Shown here piece by piece: positions 8,016 through 57,873 of a stretch of DNA of 64,000 bases (positions are counted from its first letter, which is position 1; the number at the start of each line of letters is the position of its first letter). The DNA is taken from NCBI GenBank assembly GCA_965223265.1, contig OZ244999.1:1184001-1248000 (forward strand), written 5' to 3'. Both the position numbers and the translations under genes were made by a program. This stretch comes from Planctomycetota bacterium (GTDB lineage Bacteria; Planctomycetota; UBA8108; SXIK01). The notes below the pieces were generated by a model that was not told the DNA's origin, did not search any database, and saw only the letters and a program-made list of their open reading frames with translations.

Positions 8016-8813
8016 ATGAGCACCGTCCGCATCGCCCTCGCAAACATCCGCGTGCCGACGACACCGGAAGAGTCGGTCCTCTTGGCGACATCGGCAGTCG
8101 CTGAGGCGGGCGGGCAGGGTGCGGCGGTGGTCTGCTTTCCCGAGTGCTTCGTCCCCGGGTACCGATGGCCGGACACGACACTGCCGTCGCCTGACCCGGC
8201 GTTTCTCGAACGGGCTTGGACTGATGTGGCCGCTGCTGCCAAGGCTGCTCAGATCACAGTCATACTAGGCACGGAACGAGTGACCGCGAGTGTTCTCCAG
8301 ATCACTGCCTGCGTGATCAACCCCGACGGCACCGTCGCCGGGTGGCAAGACAAAGCACAGCTCGACCCGTCGGAGGAATCCACCTATCCGGCGTTCTCGA
8401 CCGAACGTCGGACTTTCACCGCCGGGCCGCTGACCTTCGGTGTGGTGATTTGCCACGAGGGGTGGCGGTATCCGGAGACCGTGCGGTGGGCCGCGCGACG
8501 AGGCGCGCAGGTCGTGTTTCATCCACACGTCCATGTTGCTGAACCCGGAAGCTATCGCCCCGTCACATTTGCCGACCCCGCGAACACGTTCCACGAAAAG
8601 GCGATCCTTTGTCGAGCGGCCGAGAACACCTGCTACTTCGCGTCAGTGAACTGCGCGAGCGAAGGTTCCGGCACGACGTCGGCGATTGCACGCCCCGACG
8701 GTACGCTGCACTGCTTTCAGCCATATGGACAAGAAGGGTTGCTCGTCGCGGACTTGGACCTCAGTCTAGCGACCAGATCCCTCGCCACGCGATGCCGGAC
8801 GTCGCCGATGTAA
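8016..8813 (+). CDS. Carbon-nitrogen hydrolase (nitrilase superfamily)
   Basis: Catalytic triad contexts 'CFPEC', 'QDKAQL', 'ICHEG'. Confidence 0.9.
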   Translation: MSTVRIALANIRVPTTPEESVLLATSAVAEAGGQGAAVVCFPECFVPGYRWPDTTLPSPDPAFLERAWTDVAAAAKAAQITVILGTERVTASVLQITACVINPDGTVAGWQDKAQLDPSEESTYPAFSTERRTFTAGPLTFGVVICHEGWRYPETVRWAARRGAQVVFHPHVHVAEPGSYRPVTFADPANTFHEKAILCRAAENTCYFASVNCASEGSGTTSAIARPDGTLHCFQPYGQEGLLVADLDLSLATRSLATRCRTSPM

Positions 8814-42481: not shown

Positions 42482-45400
42482 GTGCAGGGATTAGTATGGA
42501 CCGACTTGCACGGGGTTCGATCTTCGCGCGCGGAAACGAAGGCCAAAGTGACACCCTCGAGATCAACTCGTTCGACCTTTTTTGGACAACGCCGGCTGTT
42601 TAGCCCGTTCACGTCGCGGCGTTTCGTTTTCTACTGCCTGTGCTGCTTCGTCGTCATCGTCTCGGGCAAGATCCCCGTGGCGCTGACGACTCCCGTTTTC
42701 GCCGCAGATTGTAACGGCAACGGTGTCGTCGACCAGGACGACGTCCTTTCTCAGGCGAGCGACGACTGTAACGACAACATGGTCCCGGATGAATGCGAGT
42801 TCGCGCCCATTGAACTCGGTCTCGGGCCGGAGAAATATCCTCTCGAGTCGCTCACTCTCATGTTCGTTGCCGGCGATTTCAACTCAGACGAGCTCCGAGA
42901 TGTCGTCGTTGTTCAGTGGCAGTGGGAAGATCAGGACAACGTGCTCGAGGTGTTTCTCGGCCGGCAGGACAGAACGCTCGAGCGCCAAACGATCGCGCAC
43001 CTTGGAATCCATCGGCGCTTGAGAATCCTGGCGCCTGCCGACTTCGATGGAGATGGAGACACCGACATCGTCGCTTACGCCGGAGCGTCTCAGATCGTCG
43101 TGGTGGAGTGCCTCGGTGCGGGTGACTTCGCCCCACCTCGGATCCACCAGGGATCGGTCACGAACGGATTGGCGGTCGGCGACGTCAACGGCGACGGTCG
43201 CCCCGATGTCGTAACGACAAACCGGCTTCAGCAAACGATCGACGTCTTCGTCCAAACCGGCGACGGCTCGCTCGCGGAGGCTGGAGCGTTTCCAGTGAGC
43301 GGCAAGGCTCCAGCCTCGATCGCCGTCGGAGATTTGGACGGTGACCGCGCCCTCGATGTGGTCACCCTCGACAGGGGCACACAATCGTTGTCGCTCCTCA
43401 TCAATCAAGGGGGTGGAGATTTCAGCGACGCGATGCGCGTTGACGTCGGCGCGGACTTCGCGTCGTGGGTTCGCGTCGCCGACATCGACGACGACGGCGA
43501 CCTCGACATTCTTGTACGATTCGACGACAGGTTGGTCGTCTACGCGAATCGCGGCAACGCCGAGATGGAACCGCCGCGTTCGATCGACATCGACCAGATC
43601 GAAACCGTTCTGACTGACATCGACTCAGACGGCGATCTCGACGTGATCGTCGCCGATCCCGATCGTCGCATCGGAATTTTCGCGAATGTGGGCGGCGGTG
43701 TCCTTGTTCGCGGGTCAGCGATTCCCGCCGAAGCCCAGTTCGTCGCCCCGGGAGATTTTGATGGAGATGGCGAGGTCGACCTTGCTGTGGTCTCTGACGA
43801 CCCTGGTCGCGTCGAAGTCCTCTATCATGGCCTGACCGATCGCGTCCAGTTTGATTTCGTGACGACTCCACTCTCGAGTCGATCCAGACCTCATCAAATC
43901 GCTCTTGGGGATTTCGATGGCGACGGGCTTGCCGACGTCGTCGCTGCCAATAGCAATCTCTCGGATGCCTACACCGTGGCTTTCAATCGGGGCGATGGCA
44001 GTTTCGGTCCGATTCTGCACATCCCGTTGCCGGTGAATGGCGTCTCGCGTACTGTGGACACCGGAGATCTCGATGGCGATGGTGATATTGACATATTTCT
44101 CGGAGATATCGGCAGGTCCCATCCCATCGGCAGCAACGTCGCGGTGATGGAAAACCTCGGCGAGCGGAAGTTTGCCGCCGCCGTTCAGTACCCGGTTGGA
44201 GCGGGTAACGCTACGCACAACGTCGATGTTGCCGACATGGACGGCGACGGCGACCTCGACGCCCTGGCTGTCTCCGAGAGTGGTTTCGTGTTCACGTGGC
44301 GCAACGACGGCAGTGGCGTGTTGACAGATTTCACTGAGATACCCGTCGGTGTTGGTCCGTATTGGGGAGAGACTGCGGATCTGGATCGGGACGGTGACCT
44401 GGACTACGCCGTCTCGGACCGCAAGGGCTTCGCGCTACACGTTCTCTCGAACCGCGGCGACGGCGTCTTCGACCAGATCGACCGCTATGCCTTGCCCGCC
44501 AATCCGCGCATCCTCGTCGCTTCCGATCTCGATCGGGACGGGGACGTGGATCTCTTGGTGCCCAACGGCATGGCGGTTTCGATTCTGAGAAACCGAGGCG
44601 ATGGAAAGTTCGACGCACCCGTGTCGCACAACATCGAGCGCGAACCCTATTCGGCGGTCGCCCTTGATTTCGACGGCGACGGCATCCTCGACATTGGCAC
44701 AGCCAACGAGTTCTCCGGCAGCATCAGCATCCTCACAGGGCGCCGAGACGGCGGCTACAACCCTCCCTTTCACCTCCCGGCCGGACAAGGAGTGCGACAT
44801 GCGATCGCCGAAGACATGGACCTCGATGGCGACGTCGACATCGTCGTCGGCAATCGCCCGGTCAACTCGCTCACAGTTCTCTTGAACCCCGCGTCCGACA
44901 CGACGACAAACAGTGTCGGCGATTTCCGTGAGGCGATTTGCACGCCGCGCGATTTCCATGACCTCTCGATACGATCGAGCTTCGCCCCAGTTGAACGTGC
45001 GCTCAAGTTTCTGGCGCCCGCGACGGACGACCCGGCGCTCCTTCCCACCGTTTACCAAAATACGAATCGTTTCCGTCTCCATCAGGATTTTCTCGCCGCC
45101 GCGTTTCCAGAACGCTTTCCGTCACTCACAACCGAAGAGTACGGCGATCTCGTCAACCGTCGAGCCCTGCGGCAGTACTACGCCGGAGTGATCAACCTCG
45201 TACGAACGGAGGACGGTCTGGCCTACGGGTTCAACGTCCTCGTGGACTCATCGGACGTCAGCGAGCTTCTCGTCGAAAGCGAAGTCGCCGCCGTCTATGA
45301 GACGCTGCGAGCATCGTTCGCCCTGGAACCACTCGGCTACTTTCCGCAGACGAATCTCGAACGCGAACTCGCCTCGACCTGGGCAAACCCCGCGTTCCCG

Positions 45401-48088
45401 ATCTTCACCGACACCGGTCCCACGGGAACCTATCAGCCCTACACTCGGGGCGTGGCCTTCGGTCGTGTCCGATTGCTTGACCGAGACGCCTTCGACCGTC
45501 GCAACGAACGCGGCCAGTTCACCTTTCAGGACATTCTCGTTCTCGATCACGCACCGCGGGACGTCGAGGCAGTGGTCGCAGCACTCCTCACAAGCGAACC
45601 GCAAACGGAGAATAGTCACACCTTTCTGCGCATGGCGATTCGGAGCACTCCCAACGCCTTTGTTGCCGATGCCCTCGCCGCTCTGGCTCCCTACGGCGAC
45701 AAGCTCGTCCGCTTGGAGGTTCGGGAGACGGAGTTCATGGTCAGGGAGGCTGACCTGGAGGAAGCCCAGGCCTTTTGGCAGGTCAATCGACCGAGCCTTG
45801 AGAAGTCGCCCGGCCTCGACGTCAGCTTCACGGAGCTTTCGAGTCTCGAGGACATCGCCAGAATGGAGCTCGCGGGTGACACGACGCTCGTCGCTCGCTT
45901 CGGTGGCAAAGCCACCAATCTCGCCAGGCTGCAATCGGTCCTCGACGCGCCTGAGTATCGCCACTATCAGGAAAAGGGCTTCGCGATTCCCATGCACTCC
46001 TACGTCGAGTTCATGCGTTCCAATCGAGCGCCGTCAGCACTCGACCCGCAGCGAATGGTCAGCTACGAAGCGTATCTGGATGAACTCTTCGATGACCCGG
46101 AGTTTCAAACCGACTCCGACTTTCGTTTCACAGCGCTCGAGAATCTTCGTGACCGCATACGCGACGAGGGCGTCGTCTCACCCGAGCTGATCTCTCGGAT
46201 CGCCGCGCGTATCGTCGAAGTCATGGGTACGCCCTCGACGACGCGCGTGCGCTTCCGCTCTTCGTCCAACATCGAGGACGACATTCAGTTCAACGGTGCG
46301 GGGCTCTACGACTCGACGTCGGGGTGTCCAGAGGACGACCTCGACACCGACACGTTCGGTCCGTCGCACTGCGATGCGACGCGCGACGAAGAACGTACGA
46401 TCGCCCGTGCTCTCAAACGTGTGTGGCGAAGTTTGTGGAACTTTAAGGCCTACGAAGAGCGCGCGTTTTTCGGCGTTGATCAAAGGGTCGCTGCGATGGC
46501 TGTCCTCGTCAATCGTACGTTTGTCGATGAGGCTTCCAACGGCGTCGCTTTCACCGGCAACGTCACCAATCCTCAGGACCGCCGTTACGTGATTACGGCT
46601 CAGGTCGGTGAGGAAAGCGTTGTCAGTCCTGAGCCCGGTGTGCGAGCCGAGAAGAATCTACTGACGGTTGCCGGCGGCGTGGTTGAAGAGATTCTTCGCG
46701 CCGCGAGCTCGACTCTGCTTGAGCCGGGCCGCGTCGTGCTCACGAACGATCAACTTCACGAGCTCGGCAGTCTCATGTGGCACATCGATCAGAACTTTCC
46801 CGTCGAGTTGGGAAACTTTAGCCGCGACCAGGTTCTTCTCGACATGGAGTTCAAGTTCATGCCCGACGGAGAGCTCGCTATCAAACAGGTCCGCCCGTTT
46901 CTCCTCAGCGTGACGCCGCTTCCCACACCTGAGTTCGAGCTCGAGATCCCTTCCGGCACCGAGGTGTGCAGTGTCTACGTCCCGTTTCGTCAACCGGCCG
47001 ACGCCTACGCTGCCAAGAGCACACTGCGACTGACCGCAGGACTCACTACTCTGCAGAGCAGTGCGGAACGCGTCGAGGCAACTCTGATCGAAGAGCTCGT
47101 GTTCGGGCCTGATCAGGAAACGGCAGTCGCCGCCGGCGATGGCGAGCTCAGGCTTCAGCGCGTTGCCGCGGCCGATGACGTCACGTCCTATATCTTTACC
47201 TACTCGCAGTCCTTCTCTCTCGCCGACGGCTCCCGTCTCGAGGTTTCCAGTCGCCTGCGCTTCCGCGCCCGCGGCGACGAGGTGCTCGACGGCGGTCGAC
47301 TCGTTTTGGACGACGCTTTTTTCACAGCGGAACCTGGAAACGAGGCTTTCCTCGCCAGCGTTAACGGCGTCCCGACGATCCGCTACGGCTCCTGTGATCT
47401 CCAGGGGCTGCGAACGATCGAGGTCTTCGCCGAGTTCGCAGACGGCACCCGCCTCGAACTCATCGAGCGCATCGCCGACGAAGACGACCAGTCCTTTTTT
47501 GCCGCCCCGGCCACGCTCAGCCATGCTCAAGCGACCTTCAGCGATGGCCAGACGCGTCAAACCAGCAGTTACTGGCAACTCGTCTACGCCGCTGAAAACC
47601 ACAACGATCCGGTCGACTACTGGCTCGTCTTGGACGTACCAGAGCCGCTTCCAGGTATCGACGGCGACGTCTTTGCTCTTGAGTTCAGAGCGCCCCCGAC
47701 CTTTCGAGAGACACCGGGCGGCCGTGCCGGCGAGCTTGTCTATTTGGGTGCAGATCTGTCGCCTCTCAAGCGAGCCCAACTGACAGCGTTCTCGCGTGCC
47801 GAGCGCATGGAAACTCTCTTTCGGCGCGGCGACGTTGAGGCGGACGGCGCCATAGGCATCGACGATCCGCTCTACCTACTCAACTGGCTCTTTCGCCGCG
47901 GCCCCGCTCCACCTTGCGAGCGAGCCGCCGATGTGAACGACGACGGCCGACTCAACCTCAGCGATGCCGTCGTCCTTCTGCTCCACCTCTTCCGCGGCTT
48001 ATCGCTGCCAGAGCCTGCGGAGATCTGTGGCGTCGGAGGTGAGAGTTCACTGAGCTGCGAGGCTTTCCCAAGTTGTACGAATCGGTGA
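42482..48088 (+). CDS. Large secreted protein: FG-GAP/VCBS repeats + PEP/pyruvate-binding (PPDK_N, ATP-grasp) domain + dockerin-like domain (start uncertain)
   Basis: Many 'GDxDGDGDxD' repeats; 'FGGKATNL', 'RFRSSSNIEDD..FNGAGLYDS', 'DMEFK..IKQVRP'; 'FRRGD..DVNDDGRLNLSDAV'. Confidence 0.85.
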   Translation: MQGLVWTDLHGVRSSRAETKAKVTPSRSTRSTFFGQRRLFSPFTSRRFVFYCLCCFVVIVSGKIPVALTTPVFAADCNGNGVVDQDDVLSQASDDCNDNMVPDECEFAPIELGLGPEKYPLESLTLMFVAGDFNSDELRDVVVVQWQWEDQDNVLEVFLGRQDRTLERQTIAHLGIHRRLRILAPADFDGDGDTDIVAYAGASQIVVVECLGAGDFAPPRIHQGSVTNGLAVGDVNGDGRPDVVTTNRLQQTIDVFVQTGDGSLAEAGAFPVSGKAPASIAVGDLDGDRALDVVTLDRGTQSLSLLINQGGGDFSDAMRVDVGADFASWVRVADIDDDGDLDILVRFDDRLVVYANRGNAEMEPPRSIDIDQIETVLTDIDSDGDLDVIVADPDRRIGIFANVGGGVLVRGSAIPAEAQFVAPGDFDGDGEVDLAVVSDDPGRVEVLYHGLTDRVQFDFVTTPLSSRSRPHQIALGDFDGDGLADVVAANSNLSDAYTVAFNRGDGSFGPILHIPLPVNGVSRTVDTGDLDGDGDIDIFLGDIGRSHPIGSNVAVMENLGERKFAAAVQYPVGAGNATHNVDVADMDGDGDLDALAVSESGFVFTWRNDGSGVLTDFTEIPVGVGPYWGETADLDRDGDLDYAVSDRKGFALHVLSNRGDGVFDQIDRYALPANPRILVASDLDRDGDVDLLVPNGMAVSILRNRGDGKFDAPVSHNIEREPYSAVALDFDGDGILDIGTANEFSGSISILTGRRDGGYNPPFHLPAGQGVRHAIAEDMDLDGDVDIVVGNRPVNSLTVLLNPASDTTTNSVGDFREAICTPRDFHDLSIRSSFAPVERALKFLAPATDDPALLPTVYQNTNRFRLHQDFLAAAFPERFPSLTTEEYGDLVNRRALRQYYAGVINLVRTEDGLAYGFNVLVDSSDVSELLVESEVAAVYETLRASFALEPLGYFPQTNLERELASTWANPAFPIFTDTGPTGTYQPYTRGVAFGRVRLLDRDAFDRRNERGQFTFQDILVLDHAPRDVEAVVAALLTSEPQTENSHTFLRMAIRSTPNAFVADALAALAPYGDKLVRLEVRETEFMVREADLEEAQAFWQVNRPSLEKSPGLDVSFTELSSLEDIARMELAGDTTLVARFGGKATNLARLQSVLDAPEYRHYQEKGFAIPMHSYVEFMRSNRAPSALDPQRMVSYEAYLDELFDDPEFQTDSDFRFTALENLRDRIRDEGVVSPELISRIAARIVEVMGTPSTTRVRFRSSSNIEDDIQFNGAGLYDSTSGCPEDDLDTDTFGPSHCDATRDEERTIARALKRVWRSLWNFKAYEERAFFGVDQRVAAMAVLVNRTFVDEASNGVAFTGNVTNPQDRRYVITAQVGEESVVSPEPGVRAEKNLLTVAGGVVEEILRAASSTLLEPGRVVLTNDQLHELGSLMWHIDQNFPVELGNFSRDQVLLDMEFKFMPDGELAIKQVRPFLLSVTPLPTPEFELEIPSGTEVCSVYVPFRQPADAYAAKSTLRLTAGLTTLQSSAERVEATLIEELVFGPDQETAVAAGDGELRLQRVAAADDVTSYIFTYSQSFSLADGSRLEVSSRLRFRARGDEVLDGGRLVLDDAFFTAEPGNEAFLASVNGVPTIRYGSCDLQGLRTIEVFAEFADGTRLELIERIADEDDQSFFAAPATLSHAQATFSDGQTRQTSSYWQLVYAAENHNDPVDYWLVLDVPEPLPGIDGDVFALEFRAPPTFRETPGGRAGELVYLGADLSPLKRAQLTAFSRAERMETLFRRGDVEADGAIGIDDPLYLLNWLFRRGPAPPCERAADVNDDGRLNLSDAVVLLLHLFRGLSLPEPAEICGVGGESSLSCEAFPSCTNR

Positions 48089-53196: not shown

Positions 53197-53592
53197 AGAT
53201 GATGCCGAACGCGTGGAAACGCAGGGGTGGACGGCGGTTGTAAGTTACCTAACGGGACACGTTCTTCTGCGGGCGTTTTTCGCTTTCCACACAGGTGGGA
53301 GACGTCTTGACCGGCGACGATCAAGATCCCGCGCTTGCGTTCTAATTGGTGTCGATGAGTCGCTGATCTTCGCGCGTCGTTTGGCGGGTTCGGCGCGGCT
53401 TGAGCCGACGGTCTTCCAGCTGACGGTGTCACCGACTCTCACAACCGTCGAGTCGAGCCCGCGCGGGAAAGACGGACGGCGGGATGTCCAAGATCTGAAG
53501 TAGTCGAGCTGGCGACCGCGCGGTAACATTGCGGGAGAAGGCTTTGGTCGGCCTTATGGTTAGGTTTTAACGAGGACAATCGGCGCACTGCT

Positions 53593-56172
53593 ATGTGCGG
53601 AAACTCCTTCTTACGCTTGGCTGTCGGCGTGGGGCTACTGGGATTCTCTGCCCTCGTTCCGAACGTTCAAGCTGACGAGTCCTATGGCCACGCTCCCGGA
53701 ACCGTGCCGTACGACTTCTCGGACAGGTTCTACAGGGCCCACGGCATCGATCCGGCCGGGCTCACCCTCCGCGTGACCGAACGAGGCGGCGGCGCGGGTG
53801 CCGTGATCGAAGGCAAGGCGCCTGATCCAACCCGCAGCAAAGTTCGCATCATCGCCACCAACGGCGGGTTCGACGCCGGTGGCGCGCTTCTTTTCTATCC
53901 GGATCCCCCCGCCTTCATCACGGAGGCCGCCTTCATGGACAACGCTGCGGGGCGTCACGCCCGGCAGCTCGCTGACCAGTTCCGCGCCTACATCTTTCCG
54001 CTGAAGGACGGCGATCCCTTCTCCCCGGCGCCGCCCAACCGTCGCCAGGACAACCTTTTCGATACCGGCCTCGGCTACCTGACTCACAACCCCCTCGGGC
54101 TGTGGACCCTGCAGTTCGTTGAATACACGGACGCAGCGCTCAACGGCGGCACATCCGAGCAGGATGCGCTCATGGCTGAGATGGAGGCCCGCAACGGCCT
54201 TGATCTTGACGGGACACCGGTGATACGGCGCAAGCATGAAGTCTTCGCGCTCGAGGAGGCAGGGCTGATCCATCTGTACACACGTGACAAGGAGACGTTC
54301 GAGAACGGACCGCCATGGGTCGTCTGACCGACTCTCATCGACCCCCGTGAGGGGTCAGTAGCCGCCGACGCGTTCTTGGTCCCGACCATTGATCAAGAGG
54401 TCATTGATAACTTTAACTGCCTGCAGGCGACCGGCGACTTCTGCGACTCGCGGCGCATTGAGTTGCAGCCGTTCGTGATGCAGCTGCCGCGGCTCGTGGA
54501 TGCCGATACCGCGACGGACCGGTTCGGCAACTCGATCCGAGTCGATGCGCTCCCGAACATGCCGTTTTCCAACTCGGGTCGGCCACACCAGCGCTTCGAA
54601 GAGTTTGCTCCGCAGAAGCTCTATGAGGTGCATGTTCGCCCGATGCCGTGGCGGTTTCACCCTGATCTCGCACCGAGCATGATCTGGGGTTACTCCGACT
54701 TGTCGCCTGGACCACTTTACAAGGCACGCTACGGTGCGCCGATCGTTGTGCGTCAGTACAACGACCTCAATCCCGGTGGCGACGGCACTGGTTTCGGTCG
54801 TCCCGAGACGATCACCCACCTGCACAACGCGCACACAGCTTCGGAATCCGACGGTTTTCCTGGCGATTTCTATCCGGGGCTGGAAAGCACAAACACCGAT
54901 GCCGGTCCTGACGCTCTCATGGGAACCGCTGACGACATCGACGTGGGAGCCGTCCACCCCGGTGAGGACTACATCATGGGGAATGAGGACGACTACCTGA
55001 CGGGAGCTGTCGGGGAGTTCCACGACTACCACTACGCAAACGTATTGGCCGGCGGCGATCCGAACGAAGCGCTCAACACGTTGTGGTACCACGATCACCG
55101 CGGCGACTTCACGGCCCAAAACGTCTACAAGGGCCTGATCGGGATGTATCTTCTGTTCGACGAAGTCGATTCCGGTGACGAGACAGATCCCAATCCGAAG
55201 GCACTTCGGCTACCAAGCGGCGACTACGACGTCCCGCTGGTGTTCGGCGACAAGTCGTTCGACGACACGCCCGACCACCAGTTGTTCATGGATGTGTTCA
55301 ACTTCGACGGGTTCCTCGGCAACCACGACACCGTCAACGGCGCCGTCGATCCCTACATGGAGGTCGACCGCCGCAAGTATCGCTTCCGGCTGCTGAACAC
55401 GGGACCGTCGCGATTCTATCAGTTCGTTCTCTCAAACGGTGAGCCGCTGGTGATGGTTGCCAATGACGGCAATCTTCTCAAACACCCGGTCAGAATGGAC
55501 GACGGCGTCAAAATCACCCCAGCTGAGCGCATGGACGTCATCATCGACTTCTCCGACACCGAAATCGGCGACACGATCTACCTGATCAACGTCATGGATC
55601 AGTGGCATGGCGCTGGACCGACTGGAATCGTTCTCGACGTTGACGAGGGCGATCCGGTCCTTGAGTTTCGAGTCACGGGCGACGCCCCGGATCCGAGTCG
55701 AGTGCCGAGAAAGCTTCGTGAACGCACCAAGATTCACGCCAGCGAAGTCGAACGAACGCGGCTGTTCGAGTTCGACAACCAAACGGACGGGTGGACGATC
55801 AACGGTCGACAGTTCGACGCCAATCGGGTCGATGAGGTGGTGCCACTCGGCGCGACGGAGGAATGGACCCTGCGGAACATGGCCGAGGATTGGGATCATC
55901 CCGTTCATATCCATCTCGAGGAGCATCAGATCGTCACGCGCAACGGCAAGAAGCCTCCGCAGCACGAGCGCGGTCGCAAGGATGTGACCGTCATCGGACC
56001 AGGGGAAGAAGTCGTGATCCGGATCAGGATACGCGACTGGACCGGTCGCTATCCGCTGCACTGTCACAACACAGTCCATGAGGATCACGCGATGCTCATT
56101 CGTTGGGACGTTGTCGATTTTGGTGACGGTGAAGACGACGACGGTGAGAGACGAGGAAGACGAAGTCGATGA
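53593..56172 (+). CDS. Secreted multicopper oxidase (bilirubin oxidase/CotA-like) with an N-terminal domain containing a putative selenocysteine (TGA 54325-54327, codon 245); 859 aa with readthrough
   Basis: ORFs 53593-54327 and 54376-56172 share a frame with only one TGA between them (GPPWVV-U-PTLIDPREG); Cu motifs HLH, WYHDH, HPVHIH, HCHNTVHEDHAM; SECIS-like hairpin downstream. Confidence 0.75.
54340..54356 (+). promoter_or_regulatory. Putative bacterial SECIS hairpin 1
   Basis: GACCCC-CGTGA-GGGGTC, stem begins after a 12-nt spacer from the TGA; loop G at +20. Confidence 0.72.
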
Positions 56173-56948
56173 GCACGACAGAGTCGTTCAGCGTTTCGAG
56201 CTTCCATGTCCGCGTCGCGATGTTCGGGCTTGTGGCACTGCTTGGAACGACGGTAGCGGCACTGTTCTCTTCCTGTACGCGCGTGTCGACAGCCGACAAC
56301 CCGTCGGAGACTTTGGGCGCGACAACTGAACTTGACCCGGCGGCCTACTACGATCCGCCCACTGTCGATGCGAAGCTTCCGAAGACGTTCACCCGCAGCA
56401 GAGCGGCGCCCGACTTTCCCAACGTCACGCTCATCGATCAGGATGGGAAGGAGGTGAAGTTCTACGATGACCTCGTCAAGGACAAGATCGTCGTCATTAA
56501 CTTCATGTTTGCGACCTGCCAGGGGACGTGACCTCTGACCACCGCGAACCTCGTGAAGGTTCGAGACAATTTGGGGGATCGATTCGGTGAAGACTTCTTC
56601 TTCGTATCGATCACGCTCCTTCCCTCAGAGGATTCGCCGGCGGTCCTCCGCCGATTCGCCGAGCGCTACGGGATTCCGGACAAGCCCGGTTGGACCTTCG
56701 TCACGGGTCGCCCGAGAGATATCGAGCTGTTGCGAAAACGTCTCGGCTTTTCCTACGTCGATCGGAAGCTCGATGCCGATCGCACCAATCACATCCGACT
56801 CGTCCTTGTGGGCAACGAACCCTACCGCTGGTGGGGGACGCTTCCTGGCGCGGATATGTCATCGAATCAGATCACGCAGTACCTCAAGTGGATGGACCCC
56901 GGGGTGTCGGGCATGAAGACGCCGCAGACGATCTCCCGGCGAGAGTAG
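56169..56948 (+). CDS. SCO1/SenC family copper chaperone, putative selenoprotein (CxxxU; TGA 56529-56531, codon 121); 259 aa
   Basis: 'FPNVTLIDQDGKEVKFYDDLVKDKIVVINFMFATCQGT-U-PLTTANL', then in frame 'FVSITL', 'GWTFVTG' and the conserved His in 'TNHI'. Confidence 0.88.
56545..56563 (+). promoter_or_regulatory. Putative bacterial SECIS hairpin 2
   Basis: CGAACCT-CGTGA-AGGTTCG, stem begins after a 13-nt spacer from the TGA; loop G at +22; same loop as hairpin 1. Confidence 0.8.
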
Positions 56949-56955
56949 ACGCGTC

Positions 56956-57660
56956 ATGCCTATTCTGATCAACAAAAAGTCCTGGTTGGGAGTGGGAGCG
57001 TTGGCGGCGCTAGCGCTCTGGTTCTGGCTCACTCCGGGTGCCGACCATAGTGAAAGCACCCGCGTGAATGAAGCCGCGCCGGATGCAGCAGGCGCACTGC
57101 GGCACGCAGAATCTGCAGAGAGCACGGTGACGGAGATCGCATCGACCGAGGCGCCGAACGAGCGTGGGAGCGACCCGGCGTGGAATCCCGGGGGCCCGAG
57201 CGAACCCACCGTCGAGGACGTTCAGCAGTGGGGATGGCTCGTGGATGACCTTGACCGGTTGATCGACGAGACCCGCCCCAAGGCACGCAGACGCCTCGAC
57301 GCCGGTGACTTCGCCAGGAAGTACCTACGGGCTAGCCTCGAGTACTTGAAGCTCGACGAAGAGGAAGGAGTGCGATTCGAGACGGCCGTGCGAGAGGGCT
57401 TGAAGGCCATCGAAGAGGCACGAGAAGAAATGCACAACGTTCGAGCGGCGACGGCGTACGAAGAAGCCCAGCCCCGTTCGATTCAGGTGTGGAAGGACAG
57501 CCAGGGTGAGTTCCTAAGACGGCAGAAGGAGGCGGCGCATCGCATCGTCGCATCCCTGCCCGTTCGGCCTCGCACGACTCTGATGCGGGAACAGGCGCTC
57601 AGGTGGATTCTCCGCTGCGACTTCGGAATCCGGCACGCAAGTCGCCCGCCGCGCCTTTAG
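56956..57660 (+). CDS. Hypothetical membrane-anchored helical protein, third gene of the MCO-SCO operon
   Basis: Starts 7 nt after the SCO stop; N-terminal TM 'WLGVGALAALALWFWL'. Confidence 0.65.
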   Translation: MPILINKKSWLGVGALAALALWFWLTPGADHSESTRVNEAAPDAAGALRHAESAESTVTEIASTEAPNERGSDPAWNPGGPSEPTVEDVQQWGWLVDDLDRLIDETRPKARRRLDAGDFARKYLRASLEYLKLDEEEGVRFETAVREGLKAIEEAREEMHNVRAATAYEEAQPRSIQVWKDSQGEFLRRQKEAAHRIVASLPVRPRTTLMREQALRWILRCDFGIRHASRPPRL

Positions 57661-57687: not shown

Positions 57688-57873
57688 TCAGGCGGAGGCT
57701 CCACCGTCCACTGCGAGCGTCGCTCCGGAGACAGACGCCACACCAAGGGCGACGTTCTCGCCCTCGTTGGCGAAGAGAATCGCCGTGGCGCGTCCGATCC
57801 CCGAAGCTGCGCCAGTGACGCGGGCCGCCTGACCGTGTAGACGACCTTGATCGTTGGATTGGGCGTTGTTCAT
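57688..57873 (-). pseudogene. Short-chain dehydrogenase remnant with a large internal deletion
   Basis: 'VTGAASGIGRATAILFANEG' joined directly to the C-terminal 'SGATLAVDGG'. Confidence 0.75.

Follow-up and report, generated by a model that had tools for sequence, protein, structure and literature searches.

The 64,000-nucleotide stretch analysed here (hereafter the window; Planctomycetota bacterium, GenBank assembly GCA_965223265.1, contig OZ244999.1, forward strand) carries three consecutive genes at 53593-57660 that likely form a periplasmic copper-oxidase module in which selenocysteine (Sec) is used twice. The first two genes are each broken by a single in-frame TGA. We hold with high confidence that both TGAs are real Sec codons, because TGA is paired with Cys codons at both sites among homologs and because the TGA forms use synonymous codons that build a hairpin. 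The first Sec would lie in an N-terminal domain fused to a multicopper oxidase (gene 1), and the second in the predicted copper site of an SCO1/SenC-type chaperone (gene 2).

Reading frames and the two internal TGA codons

Translation table 11 gives four large open reading frames (ORFs) on the forward strand of this region and a fifth at 56956-57660. A single frame runs through the ORFs 53593..54327 and 54376..56172, and its lone break is the TGA at 54325-54327; read through, they make a protein of 859 amino acids (aa) with Sec at position 245 (U245). In the same way, the ORFs 56169..56531 and 56553..56948 are separated by the lone TGA at 56529-56531 and together encode 259 aa with Sec at position 121 (U121). 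The two genes are coupled by an ATGA overlap (56169-56172), formed by the stop codon of gene 1 (56170-56172) and the start codon of gene 2 (56169-56171), and a gap of 7 nucleotides (nt) separates gene 2 from gene 3. A Pro codon stands directly after each internal TGA (CCG at 54328-54330 for site 1 and CCT at 56532-56534 for site 2), and each TGA is followed by a hairpin with a CGUGA loop. The original prediction had put forward the overlap, the lone in-frame TGAs, the Pro codons and the shared loop, and each of these matched on direct reading. The features are as follows.

53593-56172, + strand: gene 1, with a signal peptide, a Sec-bearing N-terminal domain and a three-domain multicopper oxidase; 859 codons, one Sec codon, stop TGA at 56170-56172
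53593-53673, + strand: Sec-type signal peptide (Sec here names the export pathway), about 27 aa, no twin-arginine; hydrophobic core and ...VQA/DE, read by eye from the translation
53674-54460, + strand: N-terminal domain (N-domain) of an undescribed family, ~260 aa (aa 28 to about 290), holding U245
54037-54054 and 54418-54444, + strand: N-domain motifs NRRQDN and C-LQATGDF-C, respectively; a further motif is W-V-V-U-P-x3-D-P-R-x-G
54325-54327, + strand: predicted Sec codon 1 (U245); TGA in 53 and TGC/TGT in 27 of 80 aligned species loci
54340-54356, + strand: predicted hairpin 1, GACCCC / CGUGA / GGGGUC, 12 nt past the TGA, within the D-P-R-E-G codons
54600-56169, + strand: multicopper oxidase part, CotA / bilirubin-oxidase type, C-terminal ~520 residues
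54817-54834, 55084-55098, 55897-55914 and 56059-56094, + strand: oxidase copper motifs HLHNAH, WYHDH, HPVHIH and HCHNTVHEDHAM, respectively
56169-56948, + strand: gene 2, membrane-anchored SCO1/SenC-type protein; 259 codons, site C117-Q-G-T-U121 plus H208
56529-56531, + strand: predicted Sec codon 2 (U121), replacing the second Cys of CxxxC; TGA in 38, TGC in 20 and TGT in 11 of 70 distinct sites
56545-56563, + strand: predicted hairpin 2, CGAACCU / CGUGA / AGGUUCG, 13 nt past the TGA, within the A-N-L-V-K-V-R codons
56956-57660, + strand: gene 3, 234 aa, one N-terminal hydrophobic segment, no known family

For site 1, codons were counted in the best 80 of 105 loci found, with one genome scanned per species. 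The count was 52 TGA, 25 TGC and two TGT; the remaining locus (L140), which is misaligned at an insertion, also carries a single in-frame TGA in the context …GPPFVV-U-PILIDPR and brings the totals to 53 TGA and 27 Cys. Site 2 was counted in all fetched loci, which hold 38 TGA and 31 Cys codons among the 70 distinct sites. The one exception there is L099, from a Thermoanaerobaculia metagenome-assembled genome (MAG), where around 8078-8110 two nucleotides are lost inside the hairpin gaacctcgaaggttc and the TGA is offset by the frameshift, so that either the gene is decaying or the assembly is wrong there. Thus, the homologs align TGA or Cys in 80/80 species loci at site 1 and in 69/70 sites at site 2, which bears out the earlier argument that two chance nonsense mutations were improbable. 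In the homolog alignments, coding conservation resumes directly 3' of each TGA.

Among 61 related genomes, the fused gene recurred in one other, again with TGA at site 1, and one carried a free-standing N-domain with Cys there. An SCO match at E <= 2e-32 with exactly one TGA was found in 25 of the 61 (the host genome included), 22 of them among the 28 genomes of family f6. Searched against protein databases, the N-domain returned 125 homologs, 120 of them listed. As expected for genes that standard annotation splits, 107 of the 120 stop exactly one residue ahead of the Sec position (…PW[VI][VI] or …PPFVV); of the others, eight read on through Cys, three through Ala and one through Trp, and one is a downstream oxidase fragment.

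The host genome, a single contig of 9.18 Mb, was searched for the Sec machinery, whose presence the original prediction had made a test of its claim. SelA (548 bits), SelB (324 bits) and SelD (309 bits) were all found above their curated cut-offs, together with a tRNA-Sec of 70.3 bits with the anticodon TCA. The genome also holds an FdhA-like frame of 933 aa with one in-frame TGA (G000:C1:8399739-8401184). A second, weak formate-dehydrogenase-alpha-like match also has a TGA (G000:C1:1633038-1633334, - strand), and both frames are further candidate selenoproteins. The SelD match (G000:C1:3460739-3461653) lies within an open frame of 790 aa, against a model of 311 positions, and is probably fused to another domain.

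A bacterial selenocysteine insertion sequence (SECIS) folds into a stem-loop close behind the UGA and has G/U in its apical loop, a form that both hairpins here share. For site 1, the hairpin was compared between 53 TGA forms (52 loci and the window, with L140 left out) and 27 Cys forms, and hairpin 1 was found in every TGA form. The site 1 Pro codon was CCC in 50/53 TGA forms and CCG in 27/27 Cys forms, and the Gly codon was GGG (45/53) or GGA (8/53) in the TGA forms, with GGG in only 1/27 Cys forms. The best uninterrupted hairpin had 5-6 G-C pairs in 46 of the 53 TGA forms and 3-4 in 24 of the 27 Cys forms. Two loci (L085 and L092) have GAU…AUC instead of the usual GAC…GUC. At site 2, the arms AACC…GGTT (AAC for Asn, GTT for Val) were present in 38/38 TGA forms and in 0/20 of those Cys forms that share the N-L..V residues (AAC in 11/20, GTT in 3/20). 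Hence, identical amino acids are coded differently exactly where the predicted SECIS is needed.

We used these synonymous-codon contrasts in place of a covariation count, because near-invariant stem pairs are uninformative. Two properties of the hairpins weaken the case for Sec decoding. The stems are nearly invariant, so that classical compensatory covariation is almost absent. Moreover, the codon contrast is partly confounded by kinship, as many Cys forms belong to Pyrinomonadaceae; the TGA and Cys groups are partly clades, and the contrast overstates their independence.

In three public records (P0103, P0157 and P0175), a Trp stands exactly at the N-domain Sec position, and two of these records (701 and 786 aa) extend beyond the N-domain. 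They apparently come from sources that translate TGA as W. Taken at face value, they would speak for TGA being read as another residue (Trp, Cys or Gly, through a suppressor or an altered code) rather than Sec. However, TGA terminates ordinary genes in this genome, gene 1 included, and the genome encodes tRNA-Sec(UCA) and the rest of the Sec machinery. The homologous replacement is Cys, the hallmark of Sec sites, and a hairpin at SECIS distance stands behind the TGA forms only. Decoding as another residue is therefore very improbable. Contigs of four public runs, from two samples of one study, also matched the whole stretch and both its TGAs at 0 differences, although these runs are possibly the source of the assembly itself and so give no independent support for the TGAs. 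Nonsense mutations or sequencing and assembly errors, leaving four fragments or pseudogenes, would fit the four ORFs called with table 11 and the 244-aa fragment carried as a protein in public databases (P0003), but they are scarcely credible given one and the same codon in 53 species loci and 38 distinct sites, otherwise Cys, the conserved residues that resume right after each TGA, the contigs of the four runs without a variant, and the conserved hairpins.

The three proteins and their recurrence across genomes

The original prediction had described gene 1 as a Sec-containing oxidase. Sec and oxidase do share one polypeptide, but U245 lies outside the cupredoxin domains and the copper motifs, in the separate N-domain, which in other genomes occurs as a free-standing protein beside the oxidase. 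Residues 1-340 of gene 1 matched no family of Pfam or NCBIfam. When 35 natural Cys-form N-domains were searched against Pfam at E <= 1, only scattered chance matches appeared, with no family in more than 2/35. The AlphaFold2 (AF2) model of the N-domain alone, built from 69 sequences, reached a predicted local distance difference test (pLDDT) of 90.7 and a predicted template modelling score (pTM) of 0.88. Searched with Foldseek against the PDB, this model found no fold match (best E 0.5), and VIA-align returned 0 of 48,161 chains at Z >= 2, which is no proof of a new fold. The wider family comprises 429 cluster representatives at E <= 1e-3, and among the related genomes its hidden Markov model matched 3/61. 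We rate the N-domain as a domain family without a described relative and, on the codon evidence above, as a predicted new selenoprotein family.

The oxidase part was recognized by Pfam as Cu-oxidase_2 (4.2e-21) and Cu-oxidase (1.7e-5), with Cu-oxidase_3 just under its cut-off (20.5 vs 21). All four copper motifs are present, with Met as the axial type 1 (T1) ligand (the predicted T1 residues are H769, C824, H829 and M834), and the corresponding positions are invariant in 40 homologs. The AF2 model of full-length gene 1 (pLDDT 89.4, pTM 0.89) matched CotA best in Foldseek (E 7e-48, TM(target) 0.82), and the CotA and bilirubin oxidases together ranged from E 7e-48 to 1e-41, with TM values of 0.77-0.82 to the targets. 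The protein belongs to none of the named oxidases of NCBIfam that it resembles, scoring 159 bits against a cut-off of 950 for PhsA, 153/525 for CueO, 134/581 for FtsP and 29/479 for CopA. Because the U245 codon lies 5' of the whole oxidase, it follows from the layout that translation reaches the oxidase only if Sec is inserted at codon 245.

Between its first two copper motifs, the oxidase has an acidic Gly/Asp-rich insert of ~42 residues (window about 54885-55010, mature residues 405-446). The insert is predicted to be disordered (pLDDT < 50), is kept in the closest homologs (L068 and L070) and is missing from more distant fused ones. Other inserts were seen in homologous oxidases: a long (SD)n repeat within the linker of L140 (5001-7748), and a highly charged Arg/Glu/His-rich insert in domain 2 of L079 and L080. 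The unfused oxidase of locus L117 (5911-6324) has a twin-arginine signal (…SRREMLKMGLL…), and that of the window's fused protein is Sec-type; therefore, the export route appears to differ between the fused and unfused architectures, with L117 as the one unfused example.

The identification of gene 2 as an SCO protein held up. It matched Pfam SCO1-SenC (PF02630) at 9.8e-15 with 55.1 bits (cut-off 22.8), along with weak matches to AhpC-TSA and Redoxin, and the Sco structures 3ME7, 4HDE and 1XZO in the PDB at E 4.6e-11 to 2e-4. U121 aligned to the second Cys of the CxxxC motif in the solved Sco proteins. Across 71 aligned SCO relatives, C117 was conserved in 70/71, position 121 was U in 41 and C in 30, and both P122 and the ligand H208 were invariant (71/71). 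A second SCO match in the host genome is of the Cys type (G000:C1:5038900). Gene 2 is thus rated as a putative Sec variant of the well-known copper chaperone and a new selenoprotein family, with a copper site predicted to consist of C-x3-U and His.

Gene 3 had no Pfam or NCBIfam match. By tblastn, a homolog of it lies just 3' of the SCO gene in 12/24 loci with a fused oxidase, and this conserved place is the one point in favour of its functional membership.

The architecture of the module was counted in the 80 site 1 loci. The N-domain was fused to the oxidase in 24/80, always with TGA, and among the 21 fused loci with a visible SCO site this site was TGA in 20 (L099 included) and Cys in one (L073). 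Separate genes for the oxidase, an SCO with Cys and an N-domain with Sec were found in 9/80 loci, with an SCO of a different subtype in two of them. In a further 15/80, an N-domain with Cys was followed by the oxidase; an SCO with Cys was visible downstream in 13 of these, and the contig ended first in the other two. The three-protein module thus exists naturally in all-Sec, mixed and all-Cys versions, of which the window, L090 and L117, respectively, are examples.

The remaining 32 loci were searched for a recurrent neighbour of the lone N-domain, and no general partner emerged. The neighbours included a Crp-like regulator in seven loci, a Rieske/FAD protein in five, each from Pyrinomonadaceae and at a contig end, and a multihaem cytochrome in four. 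In the last four (L095, L102, L127 and L138, all Acidobacteriota), a free-standing Sec N-domain adjoins a multihaem c-type cytochrome of about 825 aa with several CxxCH motifs.

The loci come from MAGs labelled Planctomycetota, Gemmatimonadota, Myxococcota, Methylomirabilis, Armatimonadota and others, and Acidobacteriota (Blastocatellia, Pyrinomonadaceae, Thermoanaerobaculia and Vicinamibacterales). The N-domain, the oxidase and the SCO protein, as predicted from these gene neighbourhoods, are a module that recurs across phyla. The nearest copies (82-75% identity) are in differently labelled MAGs. Because the N-domain is rare among the relatives of the window (3/61) and the nearest copies are in such MAGs, these data suggest that the operon may have been transferred between lineages.

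The genes around the three-gene locus are unrelated to copper or selenium and encode GFO/IDH/MocA, HEAT-repeat, DUF6807, hydrolase and glycosyltransferase proteins. The promoter scan returned 0 sigma-70-like sites, and a single terminator-like site (53259-53276) lies behind the upstream DUF6807 gene. An ORF of 1868 aa lies upstream (42482-48088, + strand). Downstream, an ORF of 61 aa (57688-57873, - strand) joins the N-terminal TGAASGIG of a short-chain dehydrogenase to its C-terminal ...LAVDGG...; its Pfam match to adh_short (4.7e-5) is below the cut-off, and it looks like an internally deleted remnant.

Proposed mechanism and competing explanations

We propose that both UGAs are decoded by SelB and tRNA-Sec through the short G+C hairpins that start 12-14 nt downstream. 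The product of gene 1, an oxidase with T1, T2 and T3 copper motifs, would be exported through its Sec-type signal peptide. Since this signal is not of the twin-arginine type, the fused oxidase would enter the periplasm unfolded and take up its four coppers there, and an adjacent SCO fits such an insertion. The Sec-SCO would bind the face of the oxidase around the T1 site and hand over copper or, less likely, keep the ligands of the oxidase reduced. The N-domain may expose its U245 selenolate to the oxidase, where it would either bind Cu(I) or, being redox-active, relay electrons to T1. We regard both of these N-domain roles as tentative, the one no less than the other, and the role of the N-domain is the weakest point of the proposal.

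Several findings count against the proposed part of the N-domain, and the first concerns its chemistry. The domain has one conserved soft ligand only (U/C245), with no conserved His or Met, and its other conserved residues (N-R-R-Q-D-N and D-P-R) are polar and atypical for Cu(I) sites. In the best 150 of the 429 cluster representatives (146 new and four seen earlier, scored together), the U245 position is Cys in 55, Ala in 24, Ser in nine and Gly in four, and 15 end there. The second concerns gene content. In 32/80 loci, several of them at contig ends, no oxidase or SCO lies within 5 kb of the N-domain. Family f6, in turn, has the Sec-SCO with an adjacent oxidase and no N-domain (0/28 genomes); therefore, the N-domain is dispensable for the Sec-SCO/oxidase pair, and it is the oxidase, rather than the N-domain, that the Sec-SCO accompanies.

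Some of these findings would also be expected if the N-domain were an enzyme or binding module of its own, acting on a non-metal substrate with Sec as the nucleophile, while the oxidase only re-oxidised it or the fusion were incidental. Its conserved polar and charged motifs, the lone loci, the many relatives without Cys or Sec at the U245 position and a fold without a PDB match would all suit such a module. However, an oxidase is fused or adjacent in 48/80 loci from several phyla, and the pTM of 0.89 for the full-length model suggests that the domain is packed rigidly on the oxidase. We consider an independent N-domain doubtful, though it deserves more weight than the other alternatives.

For the SCO protein, a complex of the natural Cys-form trio of L117 (N-domain, oxidase and SCO) was modelled with ESMFold2. 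The SCO scored 0.81 against the other two chains, compared with 0.00 for the best of three controls; a score of 0.81 was reached by 58/80 solved complexes and 2/110 mismatched pairs, a rough calibration here since our own alignments and three chains were used. The runs agreed in at least 88% of contacts, with a partner pLDDT of at least 83. The confident SCO contacts fall on the oxidase alone, at residues 63-72, 137-138, 409-410 and 478-480, all bordering the HxH, WxHxH, HPxHxH and H-C-H…H…M motifs, and at loops of domains 2 and 3. On the SCO side, residues 130-152, including the His-ligand loop (H147), and 158-179 are in contact. The model supports docking of the SCO onto the copper-motif face of the oxidase. 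On the opposing side, the modelled SCO makes no contact with the N-domain, its CxxxC residues lie outside the confident contacts, and Cys-form homologs stand in for the window's own proteins.

As modelled, the docking cannot separate copper delivery from a redox contact. The SCO sits over the loops that flank the T1 ligands, which we take to be the substrate site of CotA-type oxidases, and a Sec-SCO could thus be a selenol/thiol oxidoreductase of the TlpA-like kind that keeps the Cys or Sec of its partners reduced, or could itself be the electron-donating substrate at the T1 site. Weak Pfam matches to AhpC-TSA and Redoxin point the same way, as do the use of Sec in redox-active thioredoxin-fold proteins (Table 1 of PMC13188914) and the reductase role proposed for Thermus Sco1 (PMC7558416). 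However, the copper-ligand His, which a pure reductase does not need, is invariant in 71/71 relatives, and the motif has the C-x3-C spacing of SCO proteins and not CxxC. An oxidoreductase is an unlikely reading of gene 2, and that the SCO serves as the oxidase's own partner remains our favoured one, held as probable.

Relation to known systems and significance

Gene 2 shares with the SCO1/SenC/PrrC chaperones (B. subtilis 1XZO/1ON4, B. anthracis 4HDE, Aquifex 3ME7 and Thermus 2K6V) the PF02630 family and thioredoxin-like fold, the N-terminal membrane anchor, the position of the C-x3-C-P motif and the downstream His ligand. Unlike them, it has a predicted Sec in place of the second Cys, and its neighbour is a multicopper oxidase and not the cytochrome oxidase genes. 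Gene 1 shares the fold, the four copper motifs and the axial Met with oxidases of the CotA laccase, bilirubin oxidase and phenoxazinone synthase type, but it differs in the ~300-aa N-terminal extension that holds the Sec-bearing domain and in the 42-residue acidic insert; its Sec-type signal also differs from the Tat signal of the unfused L117 homolog.

Small partner proteins of multicopper oxidases have precedents. The Bacillus Mn oxidase MnxG is accompanied by the Sco-like MnxC and the small subunits MnxE/F. In Rhodobacter, the small periplasmic CxxxC protein CutF is encoded beside CutO and is required for oxidase activity (PMC7558416, the source also for the roles of Sco proteins). The likeness to CutF/CopG with CutO and to Mnx is one of description, whereas the partners here would be a Sec-bearing SCO and a domain of 260 aa, in many loci fused to the oxidase. 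Known selenoproteins with a thioredoxin fold, among them Prx-like, TlpA-like UGC, Redoxin UxxC and DsbA-like ones, likewise have Sec where a redox- or metal-active Cys would stand and use a bacterial SECIS (PMC13188914). Their motifs are UxxC, CxxU or UGC, whereas gene 2 has C-x3-U with His as a third ligand, a predicted metal site and not a dithiol pair.

The 2026 review of prokaryotic selenoproteomes covers 119 families with their motifs (PMC13188914), and in its Table 1 there is no SCO1/SenC (PF02630), no C-x3-U motif and no multicopper oxidase; the entries there that relate to copper comprise CopZ-like 2Fe-2S proteins along with an SO_0444-type efflux transporter. A Sec-containing SCO or multicopper oxidase was also absent from the main texts of PMC2398784, PMC13326102, PMC12013277, PMC9312934, PMC9402790 and PMC5029168, as far as these were available, although supplements and the BSepDB, deep-Sep and metagenome-survey lists may hold them. 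Literature searches that combined selenoprotein or selenocysteine with SCO, SenC, multicopper oxidase, and Planctomycetes and copper returned no Sec-containing SCO or oxidase in main texts, and neither Sec region has a matching model in NCBIfam release 20. With main texts as the literature basis, both are rated as new families among the SECIS-decoded bacterial selenoproteins.

If this is true, two families would be added to the prokaryotic selenoproteome, both linked to copper and one with a fold that lacks a PDB match. The locus also illustrates how gene callers systematically lose selenoproteins, since the oxidase behind the Sec codon is called as an unrelated fragment. We know of no natural Sec ligand of copper; as far as we are aware, natural bonds between Sec and a metal are known for Mo/W and Ni. 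In the boldest version of the proposal, which we think improbable as a whole, the Cys-x3-Sec-His site of the SCO would give a metallochaperone the first Se-Cu centre seen in nature and the N-domain selenolate would relay Cu(I) or electrons to T1, giving a selenium-gated, O2-reducing periplasmic oxidase spread by gene transfer through Planctomycetota, Acidobacteriota, Gemmatimonadota and Myxococcota and hidden from present annotation.

With its natural all-Sec, mixed and all-Cys versions, the module offers a test case for why Sec is used over Cys beside an O2-reducing enzyme, and the versions could be compared in how tightly they bind copper, how fast they transfer it and how well they resist over-oxidation. 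For the SCO family, the locus suggests a dedicated partnership with multicopper oxidases.

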